From positions 47,356 through 111,355 of the forward strand of contig JBFMCV010000003.1 of the NCBI GenBank assembly GCA_040754335.1: DNA of 64,000 nucleotides, written 5' to 3'. A model generated the notes under the pieces. It worked only from the letters and a program-made list of their open reading frames with translations, had not been told where the DNA came from and made no database searches. The translations under genes were made by a program, and so were the position numbers. This DNA is from Thermodesulfobacteriota bacterium (GTDB lineage Bacteria; Desulfobacterota_D; UBA1144; Nemesobacterales; UBA2774). Below, piece by piece: positions 11,189-50,560 of this stretch; position 1 is the stretch's first letter, and the number at the start of each line of letters is the position of its first letter.

Positions 11189-13555
11189 TCAGGACTGGGC
11201 GAATTTGAAACTTCCCTTTCCGCTGTCCTCCGATACATCATAATAGTCATAGACGCTCCCGCTCTTCTTCCCGAATTCGAGCCTGTTTACAACCACGCCT
11301 ATGATTCTGGCCCCGACTTTGATGAGGTCTTCCATGCTGTTTCTGAGCCCTTCCCTGTCCACTATCCCGACGCTTGCGACAAGGAGGACGCTGTCAACCT
11401 GCCGGGACAGGAGCCGTGCGTCTGCAAGCTCCATGACAGGAATACCGTCGAGGATGACATTGTCATACTTCTTCACAAGATGGTCTATCAACTCCTTCAT
11501 CCTCTTCGAATCAATCAGGTCCGCTGGGTTCGGCATGATCGGTCCCGCCGGGATGATATCGAGGCCGTTTATGCCCGCGTTATAAATAATACTATCCATT
11601 CCCGAGCTGCCGTTCAGATATGAGCTTAATCCCGGTCCGCCGTTTAAGTCCTTGAGGAAGACTTTATGAATGCTTGGTCTCCTCAAGTCCGCGTCTACGA
11701 GTATTACCTTGAGTCCCGACTGGACCATTGTAAGCGCCAGGTTGGAGGATATGGTCGTTTTGCCCTCAAGAGGTTGAGTGCTCGTCACCATCAATGCTTT
11801 TGGCGGCCTGTGGTCGCGGAGGGAGTAAAGCACGGACGTTTTGAGAACTCTGAAGGCCTCCGATATTTTGGACTGGGGACTCGTATAAACTATCATTTCG
11901 AGCTGATCGAGATCACTCCGCCTCGCTCTTGGTATTTTGCCCATGAACGGTATGGACAGTCTCTTTTTGAGATCTTCCTCATCACGAATTGTCCTGTCGA
12001 AGTGCTCGAACCCGAATGCTACAAGAACACCCCCTACGAATCCCAAAATAGCGGCGACCAGTATGTTCAACAAAATGTTTGGCTTATACGGCTTGAGAGG
12101 GGGGAAAGCATAATCGATCACATGGACGTTGGTCGCCCTTATGCCAGAGGTGACTTCGGTTTCCTTCTGCCTCTGGAGGAGGTTCTGATAGATGGTCTTG
12201 TTGGTTTCGACTTCCTTCTCAAGCGCCTGATACTTGGCCCCTATCTCGTTCAATTCAGCTGCGCGCGTTTTCTGGATATCGGCTCTCTGCCTCAGCAGGT
12301 CTTCCTTCTTCTTCGCAGAGTCGTAGCCCCTCTCTATACTCCGCACGATTCCGCTGAGGAGCGCTCCCATTTCGTGCCGGAGACTCGCGACCTGAGCGCC
12401 CGCCTGCTTCATTTCAGGGTAGTTCGCCCCATACCTCGCATCCAGATTGTCATACTGCGTCTTTACCCTCACATAATCCTCCTTCATCTGCTGATACGCC
12501 GGATCTTTAACCACTTCGGGCAGGTACTCGGAATTTCCCCTCTTGGTCTCTTCGTATAATGCTTCCTGCGCGAGACGGTCGGTTTCCGCCTTTGCAAGTG
12601 CATCGTTCAGCTCGGCAAGCTGTTTGTAAGTCAGGTTAAGGTCTTTATCCAGGGAAACTATATCGTGCTCTTTTGCAAACCGGTTGAGCTCATCCTGGGT
12701 CTTTTCGAGCTTTTCCTTGACCTTCGCAAGCTGCGTGTTGAGAGATTCTCCGGCCGATTTCGTCAGGCTGAGTTTCTTTTCAAGCACCCATTCGATATAT
12801 GCGTCCGCAAGGGTATTTACGGCTTTGGCGGAAAGCCCAGGATCGTTGCTGTTGAAACTCACCTCGACCAGTCTGGATTCCCTGTCGGGCGTGACGTTCA
12901 CACGAGACAAAAATGCGTCCACTAATTTCTCCTGACGGGTAATGGCATTGCCATCACTTTGAAAATCTTGAGAGCCTTTCTCAGAACCGTTCCCCATGTG
13001 AATGTAATTCCCAATGTGAATATACTTTTCCGCCAGAACCTCTAATCTCTCTTTTAATGCAGTCGTATACTGCGCCGCATAGCTGATCAAAAAACCCGGC
13101 TTATCATAGTCCTGAGAAAATTCCGGATATGACTCCAGGTTCAATTTTTTGATAACGTCCGCGGCAAGGGATCTGCTTTGCAACAATTTATATTGCGTCT
13201 CATAAAACTCATCCTGCTGCTGGACGCTAACCTCATTGAGCTCCTCGAATCCGGTAACCTTGGGGTCTTCCGGCGCTATTTCGACCGTAGCCTTTGCTCT
13301 ATACACTTTGTCCATCGCCAGGGACGTTATACCGACGATGAGCACCGCGATAATCAGACACGCCAGTACGATTTTTTTTCTCCTCCCGATGACGTTCAGA
13401 TATTCGTTAAGAGTCGACCCTTCCTCCACATAGACTTCGTAATCGGCGTATTCCCCCTGTAACACGGAAGGGGATTGACCCCTCTTGACGTCCTCCAATT
13501 CGGCGCCCTCGTGTCTCGTTATTTGCCTGCCCCTTTTATCATGTAGCTGTTCCAT
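11189..13555 (-). CDS. wzc: Polysaccharide copolymerase / BY-tyrosine kinase (Wzc/GumC family)
   Basis: N-terminal Wzz-like region with 2 TM helices and coiled coils. C-terminal P-loop (TSTQPLEGKTTISSNLA), a VILVDADLRRP Walker A' motif and a C-terminal YDYYD tyrosine cluster. Confidence 0.8.
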   Translation of the reverse strand: MEQLHDKRGRQITRHEGAELEDVKRGQSPSVLQGEYADYEVYVEEGSTLNEYLNVIGRRKKIVLACLIIAVLIVGITSLAMDKVYRAKATVEIAPEDPKVTGFEELNEVSVQQQDEFYETQYKLLQSRSLAADVIKKLNLESYPEFSQDYDKPGFLISYAAQYTTALKERLEVLAEKYIHIGNYIHMGNGSEKGSQDFQSDGNAITRQEKLVDAFLSRVNVTPDRESRLVEVSFNSNDPGLSAKAVNTLADAYIEWVLEKKLSLTKSAGESLNTQLAKVKEKLEKTQDELNRFAKEHDIVSLDKDLNLTYKQLAELNDALAKAETDRLAQEALYEETKRGNSEYLPEVVKDPAYQQMKEDYVRVKTQYDNLDARYGANYPEMKQAGAQVASLRHEMGALLSGIVRSIERGYDSAKKKEDLLRQRADIQKTRAAELNEIGAKYQALEKEVETNKTIYQNLLQRQKETEVTSGIRATNVHVIDYAFPPLKPYKPNILLNILVAAILGFVGGVLVAFGFEHFDRTIRDEEDLKKRLSIPFMGKIPRARRSDLDQLEMIVYTSPQSKISEAFRVLKTSVLYSLRDHRPPKALMVTSTQPLEGKTTISSNLALTMVQSGLKVILVDADLRRPSIHKVFLKDLNGGPGLSSYLNGSSGMDSIIYNAGINGLDIIPAGPIMPNPADLIDSKRMKELIDHLVKKYDNVILDGIPVMELADARLLSRQVDSVLLVASVGIVDREGLRNSMEDLIKVGARIIGVVVNRLEFGKKSGSVYDYYDVSEDSGKGSFKFAQS

Positions 13556-13578
13556 GTTAAACCTCCTCTCCGATATCT

Positions 13579-14586
13579 CTAATTTCTCGGAGGGTTATAT
13601 CCCACGCCCCCGAGTCCCCATATATTGAACTGAAGACCGTAAAAGAATTTCTTTATCCCGCTCGCCCCTACAATGACTGCGTCTTTTTCGTTAAGAAGCG
13701 GGTCCTCCGCTCCACCCTCGTGAATGCTGTTTAAATCGACTTCCACGATCTCTTTTCGACCGCTATCCGTATGATGAATCAGCTTAATGTCGCTCTTGTC
13801 GGCATAGCTTGCAACTCCGCCTGCCATAACGATCGCTTCGCTAAGCGTTGTTTTTCCCTGATTGATAGGGTACGCTCCGGGTTTCGTCACAGCGCCCTCC
13901 ACAAAGACATTAGCCGCTTCGGGAACATAAACTAAATCACCGGGCTGGATATCGAGATCCATGTCGGCCCCGTTTCCCGACACCACTTTGTCGAGGTCCA
14001 CGAGATAAGAGCTCTTCCCGCCGTTATTATCCGCTCTCGTTACGAGAACAGTCGTACCTGCCTTATCGCTCAATCCCTCAGCCGACGCAAGTACGTCCAA
14101 GAGACTCTGCTTACCTAACAACTCGTAATTTCCTGGCTTGTTTACATAACCCATGACAGCCACAACCTTACTCTTGTGCTCCTTCACGAACACGCTGACA
14201 TGAGGATTGTCGATGTAGTCACCCGACCTCAAAAGGTTCTCGATCTTTACCTCTGCATCCCTCGCTGTGAGTCCGTCGACGTTGACGTTATTGAGAAGAG
14301 GGACCGTTATATCACCCCTCGAGCTCACCCGCACGGTGGTAGTCAGCTCCTTTGACTCGAACACATTGATCTCGAGTAGGTCCGCAGGACCGATAAGATA
14401 GTCGTCCGGTGACGTCGCTGCGGCAGGAAGCCCCTTGGATAGAAGCTTTGAGTTTACGTTTCCGATTTCTTCAGGAGGTCCTGCTTCTTCTTCGGATATA
14501 CTCGTGCTTCTGACGCTGCTCCCGCCCCCGCAACCTGCAGCAAAACTCGTGAGAAGAAATAAAATAAAGAGATATCTTTTAACCAT
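13579..14586 (-). CDS. wza: Polysaccharide export outer-membrane lipoprotein (Wza-like, Poly_export + SLBB)
   Basis: Lipoprotein signal (LLTSFAAGC). Poly_export motif (YLIGPADLLEINVF...GDITVPLL..V.V.GLT), followed by SLBB-like repeats. Confidence 0.75.
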   Translation of the reverse strand: MVKRYLFILFLLTSFAAGCGGGSSVRSTSISEEEAGPPEEIGNVNSKLLSKGLPAAATSPDDYLIGPADLLEINVFESKELTTTVRVSSRGDITVPLLNNVNVDGLTARDAEVKIENLLRSGDYIDNPHVSVFVKEHKSKVVAVMGYVNKPGNYELLGKQSLLDVLASAEGLSDKAGTTVLVTRADNNGGKSSYLVDLDKVVSGNGADMDLDIQPGDLVYVPEAANVFVEGAVTKPGAYPINQGKTTLSEAIVMAGGVASYADKSDIKLIHHTDSGRKEIVEVDLNSIHEGGAEDPLLNEKDAVIVGASGIKKFFYGLQFNIWGLGGVGYNPPRN

Positions 14587-14759
14587 GTTACCCTCCCCAT
14601 GGGCACGAAAGAACGATAATTCACCTTGGGATTAACTGCTTTTACGGCTGTCCGGAACGCGCGAACACGGGATTTGACACAGCTTCGCCACCTGACTCAC
14701 ATCCCTAAACTCACTACGCCGTTATCCGGGAACCGGTTTATTACAAAGCCGGCAAACAA

Positions 14760-15350
14760 TCAAACTAATTCAATATCAGCCGTGTTTATATCAACAGCCA
14801 CGGACCGCTTAATGATATCGATCGAAATAACGAGTCTTTTGTTCCCTTTCCCGGAAAGTACCTTTCCCGTAATTCCCGCGAGCGGGCCGTTTATGACTCT
14901 TACTTCTTTCCCCTCCTCAAAATACGGGTACGGATCGCTCTCCATTTTCGCTTCCAAGAATTTTCTGACAGAATCTATCTGATCATTCGGGACAGGCTGG
15001 AGCCTGCCGTTTGCGCTCAGTATTCTGACCACCCCTCGAGTGTTCAGAACTTGAAAAATCGCGAGTGAATCAAGCGGGTGGATTCGCACAAAAAGGTAGC
15101 CGGGGAAAAGCGGGAGCTGAATCCGTTTCTTCCTGTCTATCCACTGACTGACGACATCCCTCAGAGGGAGAAAAGTCTCGATCCCCCTTTTCTCAATAGA
15201 GCGGTTGACCGCCTTTTCATGCCTGACGTTGGTGTAAACCGCATACCATTCTTTGTGCTCATTGTGCGCGCCGATGTCGAAGTTACCGGACGAGAGGGTT
15301 CTCTCCTTGTGCACAGATTGCGTGATGTCAGTTTCGACGATTTTATTCAT
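14760..15350 (-). CDS. NusG-family transcription antiterminator paralog (RfaH/UpxY-like)
   Basis: NGN domain (WYAVYTNVRHEK...GIETFLPL) and a KOW-like C-terminus. The ATG overlaps the stop of the upstream receiver gene by 8 nt. Sits immediately upstream of the EPS operon. Confidence 0.65.
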   Translation of the reverse strand: MNKIVETDITQSVHKERTLSSGNFDIGAHNEHKEWYAVYTNVRHEKAVNRSIEKRGIETFLPLRDVVSQWIDRKKRIQLPLFPGYLFVRIHPLDSLAIFQVLNTRGVVRILSANGRLQPVPNDQIDSVRKFLEAKMESDPYPYFEEGKEVRVINGPLAGITGKVLSGKGNKRLVISIDIIKRSVAVDINTADIELV

Positions 15351-21645: not shown

Positions 21646-24600
21646 ATGAAGAGTAGGCGTTCCCATATCCTGTGTTTTGTTATGGGTACAAGTTTTTTGT
21701 ACGCATATTTGTATTCCCATGCCACTTTCGCGGAAACATGTGAAAAACCGGTTGCAAAAGTGGTCTCAGTTCAAGGAACCGTAGAGGCACAAAGGGCGGG
21801 CGAAACGCAGTGGCAAGAAGTAAAATTAAACGACACATACTGCCCGGGAGACAAGATCCGGGTGCAGGAGAAAAGCCGTGCCGACGTAACGCTCCTCGAG
21901 AAGTCGGTAATCCGTCTAAATCAAAATACCACGATAACGCTCGAAAATGTGAAGGAAGAACGGACGAGTGTTATAGACATGATCAAGGGAGCCGCTCATT
22001 TCTTCAGCAGTGGTCCAGACAGCCTTGAGGTACATACACCGTATACGACTGCAGGTGTCAGGGGAACGGAATTTCTCGTAAGCATTGAAGACGATAAGAC
22101 CTTGTTGTCGACATTCGAAGGTACAGTCGTGGCATCGAACGATGCCGGCAGCCTGACGCTTACCGGCGGCCAGTCAGCAATTGCCGAGGCGGGGAAGCCC
22201 CCGGTGCTCAGTATCGTGGCGCGTCCTCGAGATGCCGTACAATGGACACTCTACTATCCGCCCGTCCTTTATCTCAGTCCCGATGAATTTCAATCCGGGC
22301 CGGGCTGGGAAGGCATGGTTCGTAAATCCATCGAGCTTTACATAAGCGGGGATATTCAGGGAGCCTTCGACAGTATTAAGGATGTGCCTGAGGATGTCCG
22401 CGATCCGCGTTTTTTTACCTATCGGGCCTCACTGCTCTTGGCGGTGGGCCAGGTTAATGAAGCAGATGCCGATATCGAGCGCGCGCTGAGGCTCGACCCC
22501 AAATATAGCGACGCCTTCGCGCTTGAAACAATTATCTATATTGTAGAGAACGAAAAAGACAAAGCCCTTGATGCCGCAGAAAAAGCCGTGGAAACGAATC
22601 CCGACTCCGCCACGGCAGAGATCGCCCTTTCTTATGCACAGCAGGCAATGTTTGACCTGAAAGGCGCTCGAACAAGCCTTGAAAAGGCGGTGCAGCTTGA
22701 TCCTCAAAACGCGCTTGCGTGGGCACGGTTAGCAGAGATCTGGGCGTCATTCGGCGATCTAGGCAAAGCGCTCAATGCGGCACAGGAGGCCGTAGTCCTT
22801 GAGCCGAATCTCTCGAGGACGCAGACAGTTCTCGGCTTCGCATATCTGACCCAGGTCGATACAAAACAGGCAAAGGATGCATTTGAAAAAGCGATCGCCC
22901 TTGACCAGGCCGATTATCTCCCGAGGTTGGGCCTTGGTCTGGCGAAGATCCGGGATGGCGATCTGCACGGCGGCGGGAGGGAGATTGAGATTGCAGCAAG
23001 CCTGGATCCAAACAACTCAATTGTCCGCAGCTATCTGGGCAAGACCTACTTTGAAGAGAAACGCACCAAGCTGGATGTGCGCGAGTACGAAACCGCTAAA
23101 CAACTGGACCCCCTGGACCCGACACCATGGTTCTATGACGCGATAGCGAAACAAACGACGAATAGGCCGGTTGAGGCTCTCCAAAACATGCAAAAATCCA
23201 TTGAGTTAAACAACAACAGAGCTGTTTACAGATCGCGTCTGCTGCTCGACTCGGACCTGGCCGCACGCAGTGCCGGCCTGGCACGTATCTATACAGATCT
23301 CAGCTTCCAGCAGCTTGCCCTCGTTGAGGGATGGAAATCCGTTAACATTGACCCCTCGAGCTTTTCCGCACACCGGTTCCTGGCTGACTCATATGCTGTT
23401 TTACCCCGACACGAAATCGCCAGGGTGAGCGAGCTGCTGCAGTCACAGCTGCTTCAGCCCATCAACATCACGCCGATTCAGCCCCGGCTCGCGGAGAGTA
23501 ATCTATTTCTGATCTCCTCCCAAGGACCAGGCTCTGTCTCCTTCGATGAGTTCAACCCGCTTTTCAACCGCAACCAGGTAACCCTTCTGACGAGCGGCCT
23601 GGTTGCCGAAAATGAGACATGGGCCGGAGAAGGCGTTGTCTCGGCCATATATAATAAGGCCAGCTTCAGCGGGGGTTACTCATACTTCGGCACGGACGGG
23701 TTTAGAGAAAACGACGATCAGAAGGATCAGATCGCAACCGCCTATCTCCAATTGGAGCTCACTTACAAAACAAGCATTCAGGCTGAGTACCGCTATAGAA
23801 ACACAGAACTGGGAGACCTGGCACTCAGATTCTTTCCGGATGACTTCCTCCCAGGCTTGAGAAACAAGCAGGAAAGAAACTACTTCAGGGTCGGTGGACG
23901 GCACGCATTTTCCCCGGGTTCGGTCCTCATCGGCAACTTTACATATCAAAATGCAGATTTTAATTTGACGGACAAGCTTAGTTCCTTTGACGCGAAAAGA
24001 CCGGAAGACGCCTATAGCGCCGAGGCCCAACACCTGTTCCGTTCTCAATACATAAATCTCGTTAGCGGCGCGGGCTACTTCGATGTAAACGGAAGGATCG
24101 ATACGACTATAACGATTGATATTCCCCCGCCCGACGGGCCAATAATTGCTCAATCCACAACAAGTACGGACCTCCAGCACCTTAATATGTACATATACTC
24201 ATACTTGAACCCCATGAACAATGTGACGTTCACCCTTGGGGCAAGTGCCGACTTCCTGAGCGGCGACAGTCCCGATGTCGGGGATAAAGACAAGTTCAAT
24301 CCGAAATTCGGTATAACCTGGAATCCGATCCCGTCTACGACTTTACGCGCTGCGGCGTTCAGGGTGTTAAAGAGAACGCTGATTACGGACCAGACCCTGG
24401 AGCCGACCCAGGTCGCCGGCTTCAACCAATTTTTCGATGACGTCAACGGAACTGAATCATGGGTATTCGGCGGGGCTATCGATCAGAAATTCCCGAAGGA
24501 TTTCTTCGGTGGCGTACAATTTACAAAGAGGGATCTGGAAGTTCCGTTCCTGGATTTTACAGCCGATCCAGAAAATCCTCCGGTCCGGAATGAGGACGTC

Positions 24601-25035
24601 GACGAATATCTGGGTCTAGCCTACCTCTTCTGGGCTCCGCATCCATGGCTCGCGTTAAGAGCACAGTATTTATTCGAACGATTTGAGACTCAGGGTTTGA
24701 CCGACCAGCCGAAAGAGCTGACTACAAATCGTGTCCCCCTCGGGGTCAACTTCTTCCACCCTTCCGGATTGGGCTCTAATGTGACAGTGACTTACCTTAA
24801 TCAGGACGGGGATTTTCTGTCGCCGGACGGTGACGGATTTGTGTCAGGCGAAGATAACTTCTGGATCGTCGATGCAGCGGTCTATTACCGTCTGCCGAAA
24901 CGGTACGGTTTCATCACGGTAGGAGCGACGAATCTCTTTGACCAAGAGTTCAATTATTTTGAGGTAGACGTCGATAATCCGCGCATACAGCCTGGAAGGG
25001 TGTTCTATGCACGGGTTACACTGGCGCTTCCATAA
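21646..25035 (+). CDS. Large secreted protein with N-terminal FecR domain, TPR repeats and a C-terminal region resembling an outer-membrane beta-barrel
   Basis: Signal peptide. FecR-like segment (TVEAQRAGETQWQEV...AGVRGTEFLV). At least 6 TPR-like repeats (AFALETIIY..., ALSYAQQAM..., AWARLAEIW...). The C-terminal ~600 aa has alternating hydrophobic/polar beta-strand character with aromatic-rich ends. Confidence 0.55.
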   Translation: MKSRRSHILCFVMGTSFLYAYLYSHATFAETCEKPVAKVVSVQGTVEAQRAGETQWQEVKLNDTYCPGDKIRVQEKSRADVTLLEKSVIRLNQNTTITLENVKEERTSVIDMIKGAAHFFSSGPDSLEVHTPYTTAGVRGTEFLVSIEDDKTLLSTFEGTVVASNDAGSLTLTGGQSAIAEAGKPPVLSIVARPRDAVQWTLYYPPVLYLSPDEFQSGPGWEGMVRKSIELYISGDIQGAFDSIKDVPEDVRDPRFFTYRASLLLAVGQVNEADADIERALRLDPKYSDAFALETIIYIVENEKDKALDAAEKAVETNPDSATAEIALSYAQQAMFDLKGARTSLEKAVQLDPQNALAWARLAEIWASFGDLGKALNAAQEAVVLEPNLSRTQTVLGFAYLTQVDTKQAKDAFEKAIALDQADYLPRLGLGLAKIRDGDLHGGGREIEIAASLDPNNSIVRSYLGKTYFEEKRTKLDVREYETAKQLDPLDPTPWFYDAIAKQTTNRPVEALQNMQKSIELNNNRAVYRSRLLLDSDLAARSAGLARIYTDLSFQQLALVEGWKSVNIDPSSFSAHRFLADSYAVLPRHEIARVSELLQSQLLQPINITPIQPRLAESNLFLISSQGPGSVSFDEFNPLFNRNQVTLLTSGLVAENETWAGEGVVSAIYNKASFSGGYSYFGTDGFRENDDQKDQIATAYLQLELTYKTSIQAEYRYRNTELGDLALRFFPDDFLPGLRNKQERNYFRVGGRHAFSPGSVLIGNFTYQNADFNLTDKLSSFDAKRPEDAYSAEAQHLFRSQYINLVSGAGYFDVNGRIDTTITIDIPPPDGPIIAQSTTSTDLQHLNMYIYSYLNPMNNVTFTLGASADFLSGDSPDVGDKDKFNPKFGITWNPIPSTTLRAAAFRVLKRTLITDQTLEPTQVAGFNQFFDDVNGTESWVFGGAIDQKFPKDFFGGVQFTKRDLEVPFLDFTADPENPPVRNEDVDEYLGLAYLFWAPHPWLALRAQYLFERFETQGLTDQPKELTTNRVPLGVNFFHPSGLGSNVTVTYLNQDGDFLSPDGDGFVSGEDNFWIVDAAVYYRLPKRYGFITVGATNLFDQEFNYFEVDVDNPRIQPGRVFYARVTLALP

Positions 25036-28452: not shown

Positions 28453-28538
28453 TGGCGGAGGGCGAGGGATTCGAACCCCCAAGTCCTTGCGGACGCCGGT
28501 TTTCAAGACCGGTGCATTAGCCGTTCTGCCAGCCCTCC
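28453..28538 (-). tRNA. tRNA-Ser (anticodon UGA), type II with long variable arm, CCA encoded
   Basis: Reverse complement: GGAGGGCTGGCAGAACGGCTAATGCACCGGTCTTGAAAACCGGCGTCCGCAAGGACTTGGGGGTTCGAATCCCTCGCCCTCCGCCA. 7-bp acceptor stem, G73 discriminator, anticodon stem CCGGT/ACCGG with loop CTTGAAA, T-loop GGTTCGAATCC. Confidence 0.85.
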
Positions 28539-33092: not shown

Positions 33093-34856
33093 TTAATGGG
33101 CTGAGCCCGCAGCTTTATCCAGGTCGTGTTCTCTCGCATCCGCTCTCAGGTCGCTTTTCCTGAGATAGGGCAGGTACTTGCCCCCGAGCGATATGTGCCC
33201 CTGCCCCACGCCTTCGCTGAGCCTCTTAACGAGATAGTCCCTGTCGAGACCGAGTATATTGACGCCGTGGTCGGATTCCACGAGGCAGAGCATCTTGATG
33301 CCTTCCCCGTTCTGGTTAGCGACTTCGTAGATAGCGGAGTAATTAAGGAGAGCCGCTTCGACAGTGCCGCATGGGAGCGACGGGTTCCTCGCGCCCGCGA
33401 AGTATTCGCTCTCCGCGAACCACGTCGGATCAGGATAGCCGTGGAAGTGAAGGATCGGAAGCCCGTTCTTTATAAGCTCGGGCATATATAGCGCGGCCGC
33501 TATGGCCTGAGCGAGTATCACGTACGTGTCGAAAGACGGCCTTATGTCCCGCCTGTGGAGGTCGACTCCCCTCGGCGTCTCGAGGTTGAGCTTGCCCTTG
33601 ATGAGGCCTATCCTCACGACGTCGGTGTTGGGATCGAGGTCGGTCTTGTTGCTGCCCGAGCGGGAGGTCACTATCCATATATCGGGCACCTGCTGGTATA
33701 TCTCCTTCCCCCTTATTACAGTTTTAACGTACCATCTGCCTGCGCTGTTCTCCCTTACCTTGTCGTCGTTAATGCTTTCGACGTTTGTGAACGAGTCCCA
33801 CTCCTCTTTCGTTACCGTGACCGGGCCTTCGTATCTGGGCGCTTCTGCGATGGCGATAAAGCCGTAGGAAACGCCCGTCCTGCCTTCGAGTATCTTTTCG
33901 ACGACGTCCCTGTGCGAGAGCCTCGTGATCTTTTCGCTGAACTTCGAGCCCTGCGGGAAGAGCGACGTCGGCTCGACGAGCCTGCCCAGGTCAGCGAGCT
34001 GCTTCGCGAATACGGAATGCGAAGGGTCGTACTCCCCCTTTTTAAACCTGTTAAGCACGGGGGGCTTGATGGGGGCGTATATCTTCGGTATGAGCGAATT
34101 GAGGACGAACTCGTCGAGCTCCTCGTTCCTGTATATGGAATCCGAAAGGTTCATGTTGACGAGCGAGAACCTGTCGGGCGCTATGCCCATGACTATCTCC
34201 GACATAGTGGTTATCAGGTTCTTGAGCCCTAGCGCAATCTTCCTGTCGTACGTCGTGCTGCCGTCCGCGAACTCGGGCTCGAGCGGCATGAGAGTGATTA
34301 TCTGTGTATTGAACGGGTCCTGCACGTACCTCGCCGTAAAGTCGTCGGCCCAGCCGCTTATCTTGAGAATTTCCATTACCGATCGCTCGGGTTTCCTGGT
34401 GCGGATATAAATTTTCTCGGCGAGCGCGCTCAGCAGGTTACGGGTCAGCGAATACTCCCTCTTAACGTCAACCACGGCGTGGATACTGCTCTTGACCTTC
34501 CTCGTCCGCAATATCTTTGATACGATCCCCGGCGGAACTTCCGCGGCTTCGTCCCAGGGTATAAGCTGCACGCCGTTCTCTCTCAACTTCTGCTCGAGCT
34601 TCTCCCTGAAGCGTATGATGATCTGGTTCCCGAAATCCTTCGGCAGGGGTCTGAACGTCACCCTCACTCTCTTCGCCATCTCTGAGGGCATCCTGGGGTT
34701 GACGAGCTCCTTCTGAGGGGGCATTCCCGCAAGACTGATTATAGTGCTGAGCTCAAGGTCAGCTAATTTATGGATATCCATTTTTTCTCCTGCTTCCGAT
34801 ACTCCACTACCCGCGGCATCCCTTTCCATGCGCCTGTCCCCATCTACATCCATCAT
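33093..34856 (-). CDS. Hypothetical protein (587 aa), no recognised domain
   Basis: Long ORF with coding-like composition on the same strand as its neighbours. Start codon uncertain. Confidence 0.45.
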   Translation of the reverse strand: MMDVDGDRRMERDAAGSGVSEAGEKMDIHKLADLELSTIISLAGMPPQKELVNPRMPSEMAKRVRVTFRPLPKDFGNQIIIRFREKLEQKLRENGVQLIPWDEAAEVPPGIVSKILRTRKVKSSIHAVVDVKREYSLTRNLLSALAEKIYIRTRKPERSVMEILKISGWADDFTARYVQDPFNTQIITLMPLEPEFADGSTTYDRKIALGLKNLITTMSEIVMGIAPDRFSLVNMNLSDSIYRNEELDEFVLNSLIPKIYAPIKPPVLNRFKKGEYDPSHSVFAKQLADLGRLVEPTSLFPQGSKFSEKITRLSHRDVVEKILEGRTGVSYGFIAIAEAPRYEGPVTVTKEEWDSFTNVESINDDKVRENSAGRWYVKTVIRGKEIYQQVPDIWIVTSRSGSNKTDLDPNTDVVRIGLIKGKLNLETPRGVDLHRRDIRPSFDTYVILAQAIAAALYMPELIKNGLPILHFHGYPDPTWFAESEYFAGARNPSLPCGTVEAALLNYSAIYEVANQNGEGIKMLCLVESDHGVNILGLDRDYLVKRLSEGVGQGHISLGGKYLPYLRKSDLRADAREHDLDKAAGSAH

Positions 34857-49261: not shown

Positions 49262-50560
49262 ATGAAATTCGACATTCTTACAATATTCCCGGAATTCTTC
49301 GAATCCCCTTTTTCCCTGGGACTTTTTCAAAAGGCGAGGGAGAGGAATATAGTCGAGCTCAATGCGCACGACATCAGGGATTATACGGAGGACAAGCACA
49401 GGACCGTCGACGACGCGCCATACGGAGGCGGAGGCGGAATGCTCATGAAACCCGGACCTATAGGCCGTGCGATAGAGCGCATAAAGAACGCGGACTCGAA
49501 TTCTCTCGTTATAATGACGACGCCAGGCGGCGAGATATTCTCCGACGAGACCGCGCGCGAGCTCTCGGGCTACGATCAGCTCGTCATCGTTTGCGGGAGA
49601 TACGAGGGTATCGATGAAAGGGTAAGGGAGCTGTACGTCGACAGGGAGATTTCGATAGGAGATTACGTCCTTTCAGGCGGGGAGCATGCGGCGGCCGTGA
49701 TCGTGGACAGCGTTTCGAGATTCATTCCCGGGTTCCTCGGGAACGTACAGTCGCCGGAAAGCGACTCGTTTAAGGAATGGCTCCTTGAATACCCCCAGTA
49801 CACGAGGCCCGAGGATTATATGGGCCGCAAGGTTCCTGACGTGCTCCTCTCGGGCAACCACCAGGAAATCGGGGAGTGGAGGAGAAAGGAAAGCATAAAG
49901 AGGACTTACCTCGGGAGACCCGAGCTCCTCGACAGGGCGAGGCTGACACTCCACGATATAAGTACCATCAACGATTTGAAAAAGACCGAACGCCCCAATT
50001 TTAAAGCGTATATTGCATTAGTGCATTATCCCGTATACAATAATCGGCTCGCGATCATAACCACGGCGTTCACGAACCTGGACGTCCACGACATTTCCAG
50101 GGCAGGTAAAACTTACGGGATCGAGAAATTTTATCTCGTTCAGCCCAACAGCGAGCAGCAGAAGCTGGTCGAGCGGGTGATCAGGCACTGGACAGAGGGC
50201 GAGGGGCCCGGGCTCAACAGGTCGAGGACGGAAGCGCTCGAATTCGTGGCAGTGATGGACACGCTCGCGGACGCGGTAAAGGACATAGAGAAAGTCGAGG
50301 GCAGGATGCCTAAACTGGTCGTCACGGACGCACGCCCCCGGGACAATATGATTGGTTACGGCGAGCTCAGGGAAATTATGACTGAAAGCAACGATCCGTT
50401 TTTGCTTATATTCGGGACCGGCTGGGGACTCTCGGAGGAGATAATGGAAGCAGCCGATTACACGCTCAAGCCCGTCAGCGGATATACCGGGTATAACCAC
50501 CTTTCCGTGAGATCGGCCGCGGCAATCATCCTCGACAGGCTATTTTCATGTACAATATGA
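49262..50560 (+). CDS. trmD: tRNA (guanine37-N1)-methyltransferase TrmD fused to a ~190-aa C-terminal domain with SpoU/TrmH-like SPOUT motifs
   Basis: First ~240 aa are canonical TrmD (MKFDILTIFPEFF..., GGGGM, VIVCGRYEGIDER). The C-terminal extension has LIFGTGWGLSEE and LSVRSAAAIILDRL, which resemble SPOUT motifs II and III. Confidence 0.75.
   Translation: MKFDILTIFPEFFESPFSLGLFQKARERNIVELNAHDIRDYTEDKHRTVDDAPYGGGGGMLMKPGPIGRAIERIKNADSNSLVIMTTPGGEIFSDETARELSGYDQLVIVCGRYEGIDERVRELYVDREISIGDYVLSGGEHAAAVIVDSVSRFIPGFLGNVQSPESDSFKEWLLEYPQYTRPEDYMGRKVPDVLLSGNHQEIGEWRRKESIKRTYLGRPELLDRARLTLHDISTINDLKKTERPNFKAYIALVHYPVYNNRLAIITTAFTNLDVHDISRAGKTYGIEKFYLVQPNSEQQKLVERVIRHWTEGEGPGLNRSRTEALEFVAVMDTLADAVKDIEKVEGRMPKLVVTDARPRDNMIGYGELREIMTESNDPFLLIFGTGWGLSEEIMEAADYTLKPVSGYTGYNHLSVRSAAAIILDRLFSCTI

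Follow-up and report, generated by a model that had tools for sequence, protein, structure and literature searches.

How CHASE2 sensors get signals across the cell envelope is the question raised by a locus of a Thermodesulfobacteriota bacterium, for which we analysed a stretch of 64,000 nucleotides (assembly GCA_040754335.1, contig JBFMCV010000003.1, positions 47,356 to 111,355 of the forward strand; hereafter the window). Two genes upstream of a CHASE2 adenylate cyclase, this window holds an open reading frame (ORF) of 1129 amino acids (aa) whose product combines a FecR domain, a TPR scaffold and a C-terminal beta-barrel. We consider it probable that this gene encodes an outer-membrane signal receptor of the NsrA family, which relays a cue to the cyclase. 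To our knowledge, NsrA of Sinorhizobium meliloti is the sole genetically studied outer-membrane partner of a CHASE2 sensor. The arrangement is therefore already known in kind from NsrA and the cyclase CyaK, and the protein of the window is a member from a distant lineage. What this study adds is the breadth of the family, two gene arrangements, an occasional GGDEF-EAL partner, a conserved neck and loop, a Cys-rich companion, a linked glutaminase that binds cyclic nucleotides (cNMP) and a candidate phosphodiesterase.

Domain architecture and modelled fold

The ORF (Table 1) is preceded by a Shine-Dalgarno-like GGGGTGGAG which ends 5 nt 5' of the ATG, and its N-terminus reads MKSRRSH-ILCFVMGTSFLYAYLY-SHATFA/ET, the slash marking the predicted cleavage site. 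This looks like a Sec signal peptide, with a positive n-region, a hydrophobic core and an A-x-A-like site, and residues 5-22 form a helix in the AlphaFold2 model. NCBI lists the identical protein (P0001, 'FecR domain-containing protein'), from a Thermodesulfobacteriota metagenome-assembled genome on a 562-kb contig, with 1057 aa; that call is shorter by 72 residues and would fit a start near residue 73 (window 21646-21864), in which case the signal peptide and the beginning of the conserved FecR region would be lost. Because many positions between residues 37 and 72 are nearly invariant in an alignment of 60 sequences, the 1129-aa form is the better gene call. Nor is this a chance ORF, since it has more than 6000 homologues, the best 120 of which are 62-93% identical and cover 92-100% of the query.

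The original prediction, made from the sequence of this locus, had described a FecR domain and a TPR scaffold in the 1129-aa protein, and both were recovered. The FecR match is well above its cutoff, and the conserved FecR region spans about residues 30-205. The Pfam models TPR_1/2/8/11/14/16/17/19 match over about residues 240-540, and in the AlphaFold2 model, which was built on 60 homologues, most 10-residue blocks of the TPR helices have a predicted local distance difference test (pLDDT) value of 73-90, with about 52-62 past residue 450. When the family profile was searched by sequence against PDB chains, it matched TPR proteins only, and no solved relative of the barrel or of the neck was returned.

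The C-terminal region was modelled as a barrel and not as some other fold, in keeping with what had been predicted, although its size has to be revised from about 600 aa to about 485 aa (residues 645-1129), as a neck of about 120 aa precedes it. Counting strands as DSSP segments, we found 23 between residues 645 and 1128, two of them split only by a 2-residue bulge, so the model can be read as having about 22 strands plus one bulge. Outside the loop at 909-936, the 10-residue blocks of the barrel reach pLDDT values of about 72-92. In a Foldseek search of the PDB, TonB-dependent transporters (TBDTs) ranked first, led by FptA (E 3.2e-15) and followed by FpvA, PqqU, FhuE, FoxA, FecA and BtuB; these matches lie between E 3e-15 and 1e-12, with about 550-575 aligned columns and target-normalised template modelling scores of 0.5-0.6. 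From sequence families, the last 500 residues obtained just a sub-threshold Pfam match to OMP_b-brl_3 (E 3e-4). With the N-terminus placed inside, the periplasmic turns measure 2-6 aa and hold 1 acidic and 5 basic among 34 residues, and the predicted outer loops measure 3-28 aa and hold 29 acidic and 8 basic among 120 residues. In the model, this alternation of short turns and longer acidic loops is the pattern expected of an outer-membrane barrel.

Since the best structural matches are TBDTs and the 22-strand barrel is of their class, it may be asked whether the protein is a genuine TonB-dependent transporter which imports a nutrient with TonB energy. Many homologues carry a precomputed PF00593 match, marked weak wherever a strength is stated, and three are named 'TonB-dependent receptor' or 'TonB-dependent receptor domain-containing protein'. 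Nevertheless, we regard this as very unlikely, because the protein of the window has neither a PF00593 match in the Pfam scan nor a Plug domain (PF07715; none in the whole protein at E<=0.01 or in residues 486-660 at E<=10), and FecR and TPR stand where the N-terminal plug and TonB box would be. Furthermore, no TonB, ExbB or ExbD was present among the neighbouring ORFs scanned (11-36 kb), and the conserved linkage is with cyclases, not uptake genes. The transporter was thus rejected for want of a plug domain. Database names of homologues, such as 'TonB-dependent receptor', 'TPR repeat protein' and 'Flp pilus assembly protein TadD', are misleading.

The match to the FecR domain could also bring to mind a FecR-type anti-sigma regulator of an extracytoplasmic function (ECF) sigma factor, which is hardly conceivable here, as the protein begins with a cleavable signal peptide, not with a cytoplasmic anti-sigma domain and a single transmembrane helix, some 900 aa of TPR and barrel come after the FecR domain, and no ECF sigma factor occurs among the neighbouring ORFs scanned over the same 11-36 kb. 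With the wrong topology and no sigma gene, this candidate was rejected. The likeness to the FecA-FecR-FecI system lies elsewhere, in that a TBDT-type 22-strand barrel and a periplasmic FecR domain carry a surface signal inward. The two differ in that, in the window, barrel and FecR domain belong to one polypeptide whose output would be cAMP synthesis and not the release of a sigma factor, and in that the N-terminal signalling domain, plug, anti-sigma segment and ECF sigma factor of that system are missing, the FecR and TPR parts standing at the position of the TonB box.

Comparatively, conservation among 75 species peaks at two places, the end of the TPR together with the neck (486-644) and the predicted outer loop at 909-936. 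The majority-residue frequency is 0.82-0.85 over residues 486-644 and rises to 0.96 at 586-605, while the loop has 0.83 against 0.20-0.37 for loops 4, 5, 6, 8, 9 and 10, which are the most variable parts. The neck region (486-660) matched no Pfam family even at E<=10 and no NCBIfam family either. Both segments are poorly modelled, with pLDDT below 50 over most of 522-626 and for 915-932. We suspect that neck and loop may be packed inside or beneath the barrel, or may serve to bind a partner.

Homology to NsrA and linkage with CHASE2 cyclases

A tblastn search of plasmid records matched pSymB of S. meliloti at a 1190-aa 'FecR domain-containing protein', and the stop of its gene overlaps the start of the annotated cyaK. 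Owing to this position immediately upstream of cyaK and to its architecture, we identify the protein as NsrA, which we take to carry the locus tag SMb20775. With BLASTP, the protein of the window is 24% identical to NsrA over residues 1-489 (E 1e-19), and the sole barrel segment aligned is 877-935 against 947-1006. The hhalign comparison of the family profile with NsrA extends over 979 columns (43-1123 against 25-1173; probability 99.4%, E 2e-21, about 25% identity), and a profile of the barrel only scores 22.1 bits on the NsrA C-terminus, compared with at most 5.0 bits for 500 shuffles. The Pfam layout of NsrA is also the same, with FecR at 66-160, to which the FecR domain of the window aligns, and TPRs at 378-587. 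By sequence, then, the protein belongs to the NsrA family, distantly but over its whole length, and it displays five traits of that family, namely an export signal followed by FecR, a central TPR, a C-terminal barrel, full-length homology and a nearby CHASE2 cyclase.

NsrA is described as a predicted outer-membrane beta-barrel protein with the barrel at about aa 600-1200, and its authors pointed out an acidic surface feature (PMC7529298). The CHASE2 cyclases CyaK and CyaD1/D2 are reported to need NsrA to perceive a plant signal or the ribosomal protein uL2 (PMC7529298, PMC13001267, PMC10463352, citing Garnerone et al. 2018). By analogy, the CHASE2 cyclase of the window would require such an outer-membrane protein for perception. 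The two systems share a signal peptide, FecR, TPR and C-terminal barrel within about 1130-1190 aa, acidic predicted surface loops, and a gene that adjoins, and is co-directional with, that of a CHASE2 and class III cyclase. They differ in that nsrA overlaps cyaK, whereas a gene for a Cys-rich secreted protein intervenes in the window, and in that the output in S. meliloti is the CRP-like regulator Clr, whereas the linked cNMP-binding protein of the window is a glutaminase. The host also differs, being a Thermodesulfobacteriota/Dadabacteria-like metagenome-assembled genome and no plant symbiont, so the ligand is probably another than the plant signal or uL2 of NsrA.

The family is large and widely spread. 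Relatives were found in at least 583 species-representative genomes, whose labels include Thermodesulfobacteriota, Rokubacteria, Binatia, Nitrospirota, Vicinamibacteria, Candidatus Brocadia, Poribacteria, and Beta- and Gammaproteobacteria, and a search with the barrel only gave 2711 clusters at 50% identity, in which full-length members mostly measure 1060-1150 aa and carry the barrel C-terminally. The NsrA architecture is hence no rhizobial oddity. For three homologues located by exact sequence (labels including Entotheonellia and Binatia), a CHASE2 and Guanylate_cyc gene follows in all three, and a gene for a cNMP-binding protein precedes two of them. Other genomes have, as the linked cNMP-binding protein, either a CRP-type regulator or a stand-alone one.

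For the linkage analysis, 80 species loci were sampled and their fetched flanks were searched by tblastn with the cyclase of the window, which gave a CHASE2/cyclase match in 62. Where at least 3 kb was available on both flanks, a CHASE2 cyclase was present in 38 of the 43 loci, 36 of these within 3 kb, and chance adjacency is not credible at such a frequency since a genome has few such genes. Two arrangements were noticed. For downstream cyclases (15 same-strand and 10 convergent loci), those matches that are near full-length share 40-87% identity with the cyclase of the window over CHASE2 and 43-88% over the catalytic part, and upstream same-strand cyclases (33 loci, with a gap of 26-470 bp in 31) are about 30% identical; for the upstream cyclase of locus L052, Pfam confirmed both CHASE2 and Guanylate_cyc. 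In three of the five exceptions (L014, L027 and L031, with Gammaproteobacteria and Methylococcaceae labels), a transmembrane (TM)-HAMP-PAS-GGDEF-EAL enzyme replaces the cyclase, and it seems that the outer-membrane module is reused there for cyclic di-GMP signalling with a non-CHASE2 periplasmic domain. The co-occurrence of FecR-TPR-barrel proteins with CHASE2 cyclases, which the original prediction had offered as a test of itself, is thereby upheld across phyla. Its placement of the gene directly upstream of the cyclase needs a correction: the cyclase is close and on the same strand, with a 239-aa Cys-rich gene in between.

Comparable pairings have been reported in other lineages. A cluster of Campylobacterota consists of a CHASE2 cyclase, a phosphodiesterase, a FecR-domain protein of the outer membrane and one TPR protein (PMC9239204); compared by description, this is the same parts list, the phosphodiesterase candidate included, with the difference that TPR is reported as a separate protein whereas FecR, TPR and barrel are fused in the window. 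In the 'BiofilmReg' operon of Burkholderia, a LysM-FecR periplasmic protein has a CHASE2 histidine kinase as its partner (PMC5192318), so that a FecR-domain envelope protein is again genetically paired with a CHASE2 sensor, though it has no barrel or TPR and the output is a two-component kinase and not a cyclase. FecR-CHASE2 pairing is therefore a recurring theme, and suggests a general partnership.

The proposed signalling route and its alternatives

Following Sec export, the C-terminal residues would fold as a TBDT-like barrel of the outer membrane, from which the FecR domain, the TPR superhelix and the conserved neck would hang into the periplasm. An extracellular cue would be received at the acidic surface loops of the barrel, or with the help of the Cys-rich secreted protein, and would then travel through neck, TPR and FecR to reach the CHASE2 domain of the cyclase in the periplasm. 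The cyclase would make cyclic AMP (cAMP), which would act on cNMP-binding effectors, most likely the glutaminase-STAS-cNMP protein, and the divergently encoded metallo-beta-lactamase (MBL)-fold hydrolase may degrade the nucleotide. Within this route we infer the contact between the FecR/TPR parts and CHASE2, the direction of signalling, the ligand, the output, and what the Cys-rich protein, the glutaminase and the hydrolase each do. An envelope-side receiver that feeds the cyclase had been supposed from the outset, and both the gene linkage and the NsrA homology speak in its favour, the direction and the physical route being our proposal.

Several points weigh against a receptor role. The protein ends in ...TLALP (window 25018-25032), which is nearly invariant in its family, whereas NsrA ends in ...VKVRF with the canonical aromatic F, and an aromatic last residue is usual for outer-membrane barrels. 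Model confidence is moderate, with a mean pLDDT of 68.5 and a predicted template modelling score (pTM) of 0.51, and residues 522-626 and 915-932, which are the two best-conserved segments, fall below pLDDT 50 together with half of the FecR domain (103-206); occlusion of the barrel and transmission of the signal are therefore not visible in the model. Most of the predicted surface loops are short, at 3-15 aa, and among the short ones conservation is poor, which is a thin basis for a dedicated ligand-binding surface. NsrA itself is just about 25% identical, and at the level of the barrel the similarity is weak (22 bits), while for this protein and its close relatives alike the support for a receptor comes from sequence and model. 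Again, gene linkage indicates functional association and is silent on direction or direct contact.

The Cys-rich protein, whose gene lies between those of the putative receptor and the cyclase, has 46 homologues, all unnamed and without Pfam assignment, and itself found no family in Pfam or NCBIfam; no source searched gives a name to this third component. A hidden Markov model of its family matched just ORFs that adjoin an NsrA-like gene, in 23 loci (about 28%), the first copy directly downstream and, in L007, L019 and L081, a second copy just beyond the first, and it matched nothing elsewhere in the fetched flanks of the species loci. The AlphaFold2 model is all-beta and confident (pLDDT 84.9, pTM 0.79), and no specific structural relative was found for it in the PDB. 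It is a possible third component of the receptor-cyclase module, at most an accessory of one subfamily, because it is present in about 28% of the loci and not in nsrA-cyaK of S. meliloti. In L034, L043, L048, L064, L058 and L067, small ORFs of 66-109 aa without signal peptide lie just downstream of the NsrA-like gene; these putative genes form small similarity groups (e.g. MSLTLKRRVIMAIKTLGITIDLETGQVKD...) at loci where the cyclase is immediately upstream, and take the place of the Cys-rich gene.

This companion opens another explanation, in which the barrel acts chiefly as a channel or translocon that either admits a ligand for sensing by CHASE2, or exports or displays the Cys-rich protein as the real sensor or a secreted factor, in the manner of Slam or two-partner secretion. 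TPR plus barrel is the layout of the export machines Slam, BcsC and PgaA. The 22-strand TBDT-like barrel without detectable plug would suit a channel, as would the strict position of the Cys-rich family directly downstream of NsrA-like genes in its 23 loci, and the pair of NsrA-like and Cys-rich genes is kept even where the partner is a GGDEF-EAL enzyme instead of a cyclase. However, the Cys-rich gene occurs in only about 28% of loci whereas the link with cyclases is near-universal, nsrA of S. meliloti overlaps cyaK with no Cys-rich gene between them, and the genetics of NsrA points to signal perception (PMC7529298). The neck at 555-644 and the loop at 909-936 could themselves occlude the pore. 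Weighing these points, we think a channel or translocon unlikely.

The same layout invites comparison with Slam, BcsC, PgaA and PelB, all of which fuse a periplasmic TPR scaffold to a C-terminal outer-membrane barrel, although they have no FecR domain and take their substrates from biosynthesis or lipoprotein genes, not cyclases. Their barrels are smaller, with 14-18 strands. A TPR-barrel porin of the BcsC/PgaA/PelB kind that serves the polysaccharide export genes of the window would agree with the periplasmic TPR, the C-terminal barrel, the weak NCBIfam matches to BcsC and EpsL, and the presence of Wzz/GNVR tyrosine-kinase and Poly_export/SLBB genes at 11189-14586. Yet these export genes are 7 kb off on the other strand, the NCBIfam scores are 18-19 bits against cutoffs of 275-858, the barrel resembles 22-strand TBDTs and not porins of 16-18 strands, and neither the FecR domain nor the pairing with a cyclase has a counterpart in BcsC/PgaA/PelB systems, all of which makes such a porin highly improbable. 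It was rejected as being of the wrong barrel class and for want of evidence that the export genes keep company with the barrel gene in other species.

Returning to the receptor of the NsrA family, a wider and rather doubtful idea, which we put forward only tentatively, is that the NsrA-like barrel and the Cys-rich beta-sandwich protein form a portable two-protein input module for varied inner-membrane second-messenger enzymes (two lineages of CHASE2 cyclases and HAMP-PAS-GGDEF-EAL), wired in the window to nitrogen metabolism via a cAMP-gated glutaminase. If true, this would be a trans-envelope signalling route which bypasses transcription. The family itself is a tractable way into the question of how CHASE2 sensors receive signals across the envelope, and the neck at 555-644, the loop at 909-936, the Cys-rich protein as candidate third component and a possible non-transcriptional output through the cNMP-binding glutaminase are handles for experiments.

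Neighbouring genes of the window

Table 1. Features of the putative receptor gene and its neighbours. Positions refer to the window unless another locus is named.
Feature	Position	Strand	Details
Gene for putative NsrA-like outer-membrane receptor	21646..25035	+	ORF with ATG start, 1129 aa; signal peptide, FecR, TPR, neck and beta-barrel
Predicted signal peptide, residues 1-29	21646..21732	+	sequence reading; predicted cleavage after ATFA
FecR domain, residues 69-161	21850..22128	+	PF04773, E 5e-18; 65.8 bits (cutoff 24)
TPR superhelix, residues 221-521	22306..23208	+	paired helices, about 8 TPR pairs
Conserved neck, residues 522-644	23209..23577	+	between TPR and barrel; helical, poorly modelled
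C-terminal beta-barrel of about 22 strands, residues 645-1129	23578..25032	+	AlphaFold2/DSSP and Foldseek
Conserved 28-aa inter-strand segment, residues 909-936	24370..24453	+	KRTLITDQTLEPTQVAGFNQFFDDVNGT; predicted outer loop 7
Cys-rich secreted protein, 239 aa	25113..25832	+	26 Cys; between putative receptor and cyclase; start 25113 set by 239-aa homologues
CHASE2 class III adenylate cyclase, 758 aa	25943..28219	+	inner-membrane; CHASE2 E 3e-66, Guanylate_cyc E 1e-21
Glutaminase-STAS-cNMP-binding protein, 629 aa	19675..21564	+	Glutaminase E 1e-119, STAS E 4e-5, cNMP_binding E 3e-19
MBL-fold hydrolase, 249 aa	18327..19076	-	Lactamase_B_2 E 2e-19; divergent from the operon; candidate cyclic-nucleotide phosphodiesterase
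TM-HAMP-PAS-GGDEF-EAL enzymes	L014 12346-14946; L027 10279-12873; L031 14287-16914		gene order: NsrA-like, Cys-rich protein, enzyme

Four of the genes listed in Table 1, from the glutaminase to the cyclase, are co-directional on the plus strand with gaps of 81, 41 (77 if counted from 25113, the preferred start) and 110 bp. No terminator-like site was detected in these three intergenic gaps, the promoter and terminator scans having performed no better than on shuffled sequence. Together with the divergent hydrolase, the five genes look like a complete cyclic-nucleotide module with input, cAMP synthesis, effector and removal. The motifs FSD, K-x-x-x-GD and GD-x-VN-x-x-SR of the cyclase, which bear the adenylate-type catalytic Asp/Lys/Asp/Asn/Arg, align with those of S. 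meliloti CyaK.

The glutaminase-STAS-cNMP protein retains an intact FGE...RSA phosphate-binding cassette. In L005, L007, L008, L039, L047, L049, L050 and L073, the NsrA-like gene has a glutaminase match no more than 10 kb away, and the glutaminase-cNMP architecture is widespread, being carried by all of the best 120 matches, which are named just 'glutaminase' or 'glutaminase A'. Two of the three other genomes sampled have the gene among other cyclases, cNMP-binding proteins and metallophosphoesterases, and no mention of a cNMP-binding glutaminase was found in the literature searched. The protein is a candidate cAMP effector, and direct control of glutamine breakdown by cAMP is possible.

As for the removal of the nucleotide, the MBL-fold protein matches NF041851 ('cyclic nucleotide-degrading phosphodiesterase') over its full length at E 2e-33, with a sub-threshold 115.6 bits against a cutoff of 400, and RNase Z models score it similarly. 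Its gene is syntenic in L005, L007 and L008, the closest relatives, and distant copies occur near the module in L024, L030, L035 and L068. The hydrolase might serve to switch the cAMP signal off.

The remainder of the window is ordinary chromosome, with rpsB-tsf-pyrH-frr, serS, ffh and trmD. The last of these (49262..50560, plus strand) encodes a 432-aa fusion of TrmD (tRNA m1G methyltransferase) to a second S-adenosylmethionine-dependent RNA methyltransferase domain (Methyltrn_RNA_4). On the minus strand, the Wzz/GNVR tyrosine-kinase-type and Poly_export/SLBB polysaccharide export pair stands beside a NusG-domain protein (11189-15350), a 587-aa ORF at 33093..34856 matches no Pfam or NCBIfam family, and a tRNA gene (28456-28538) is found just past the cyclase gene.

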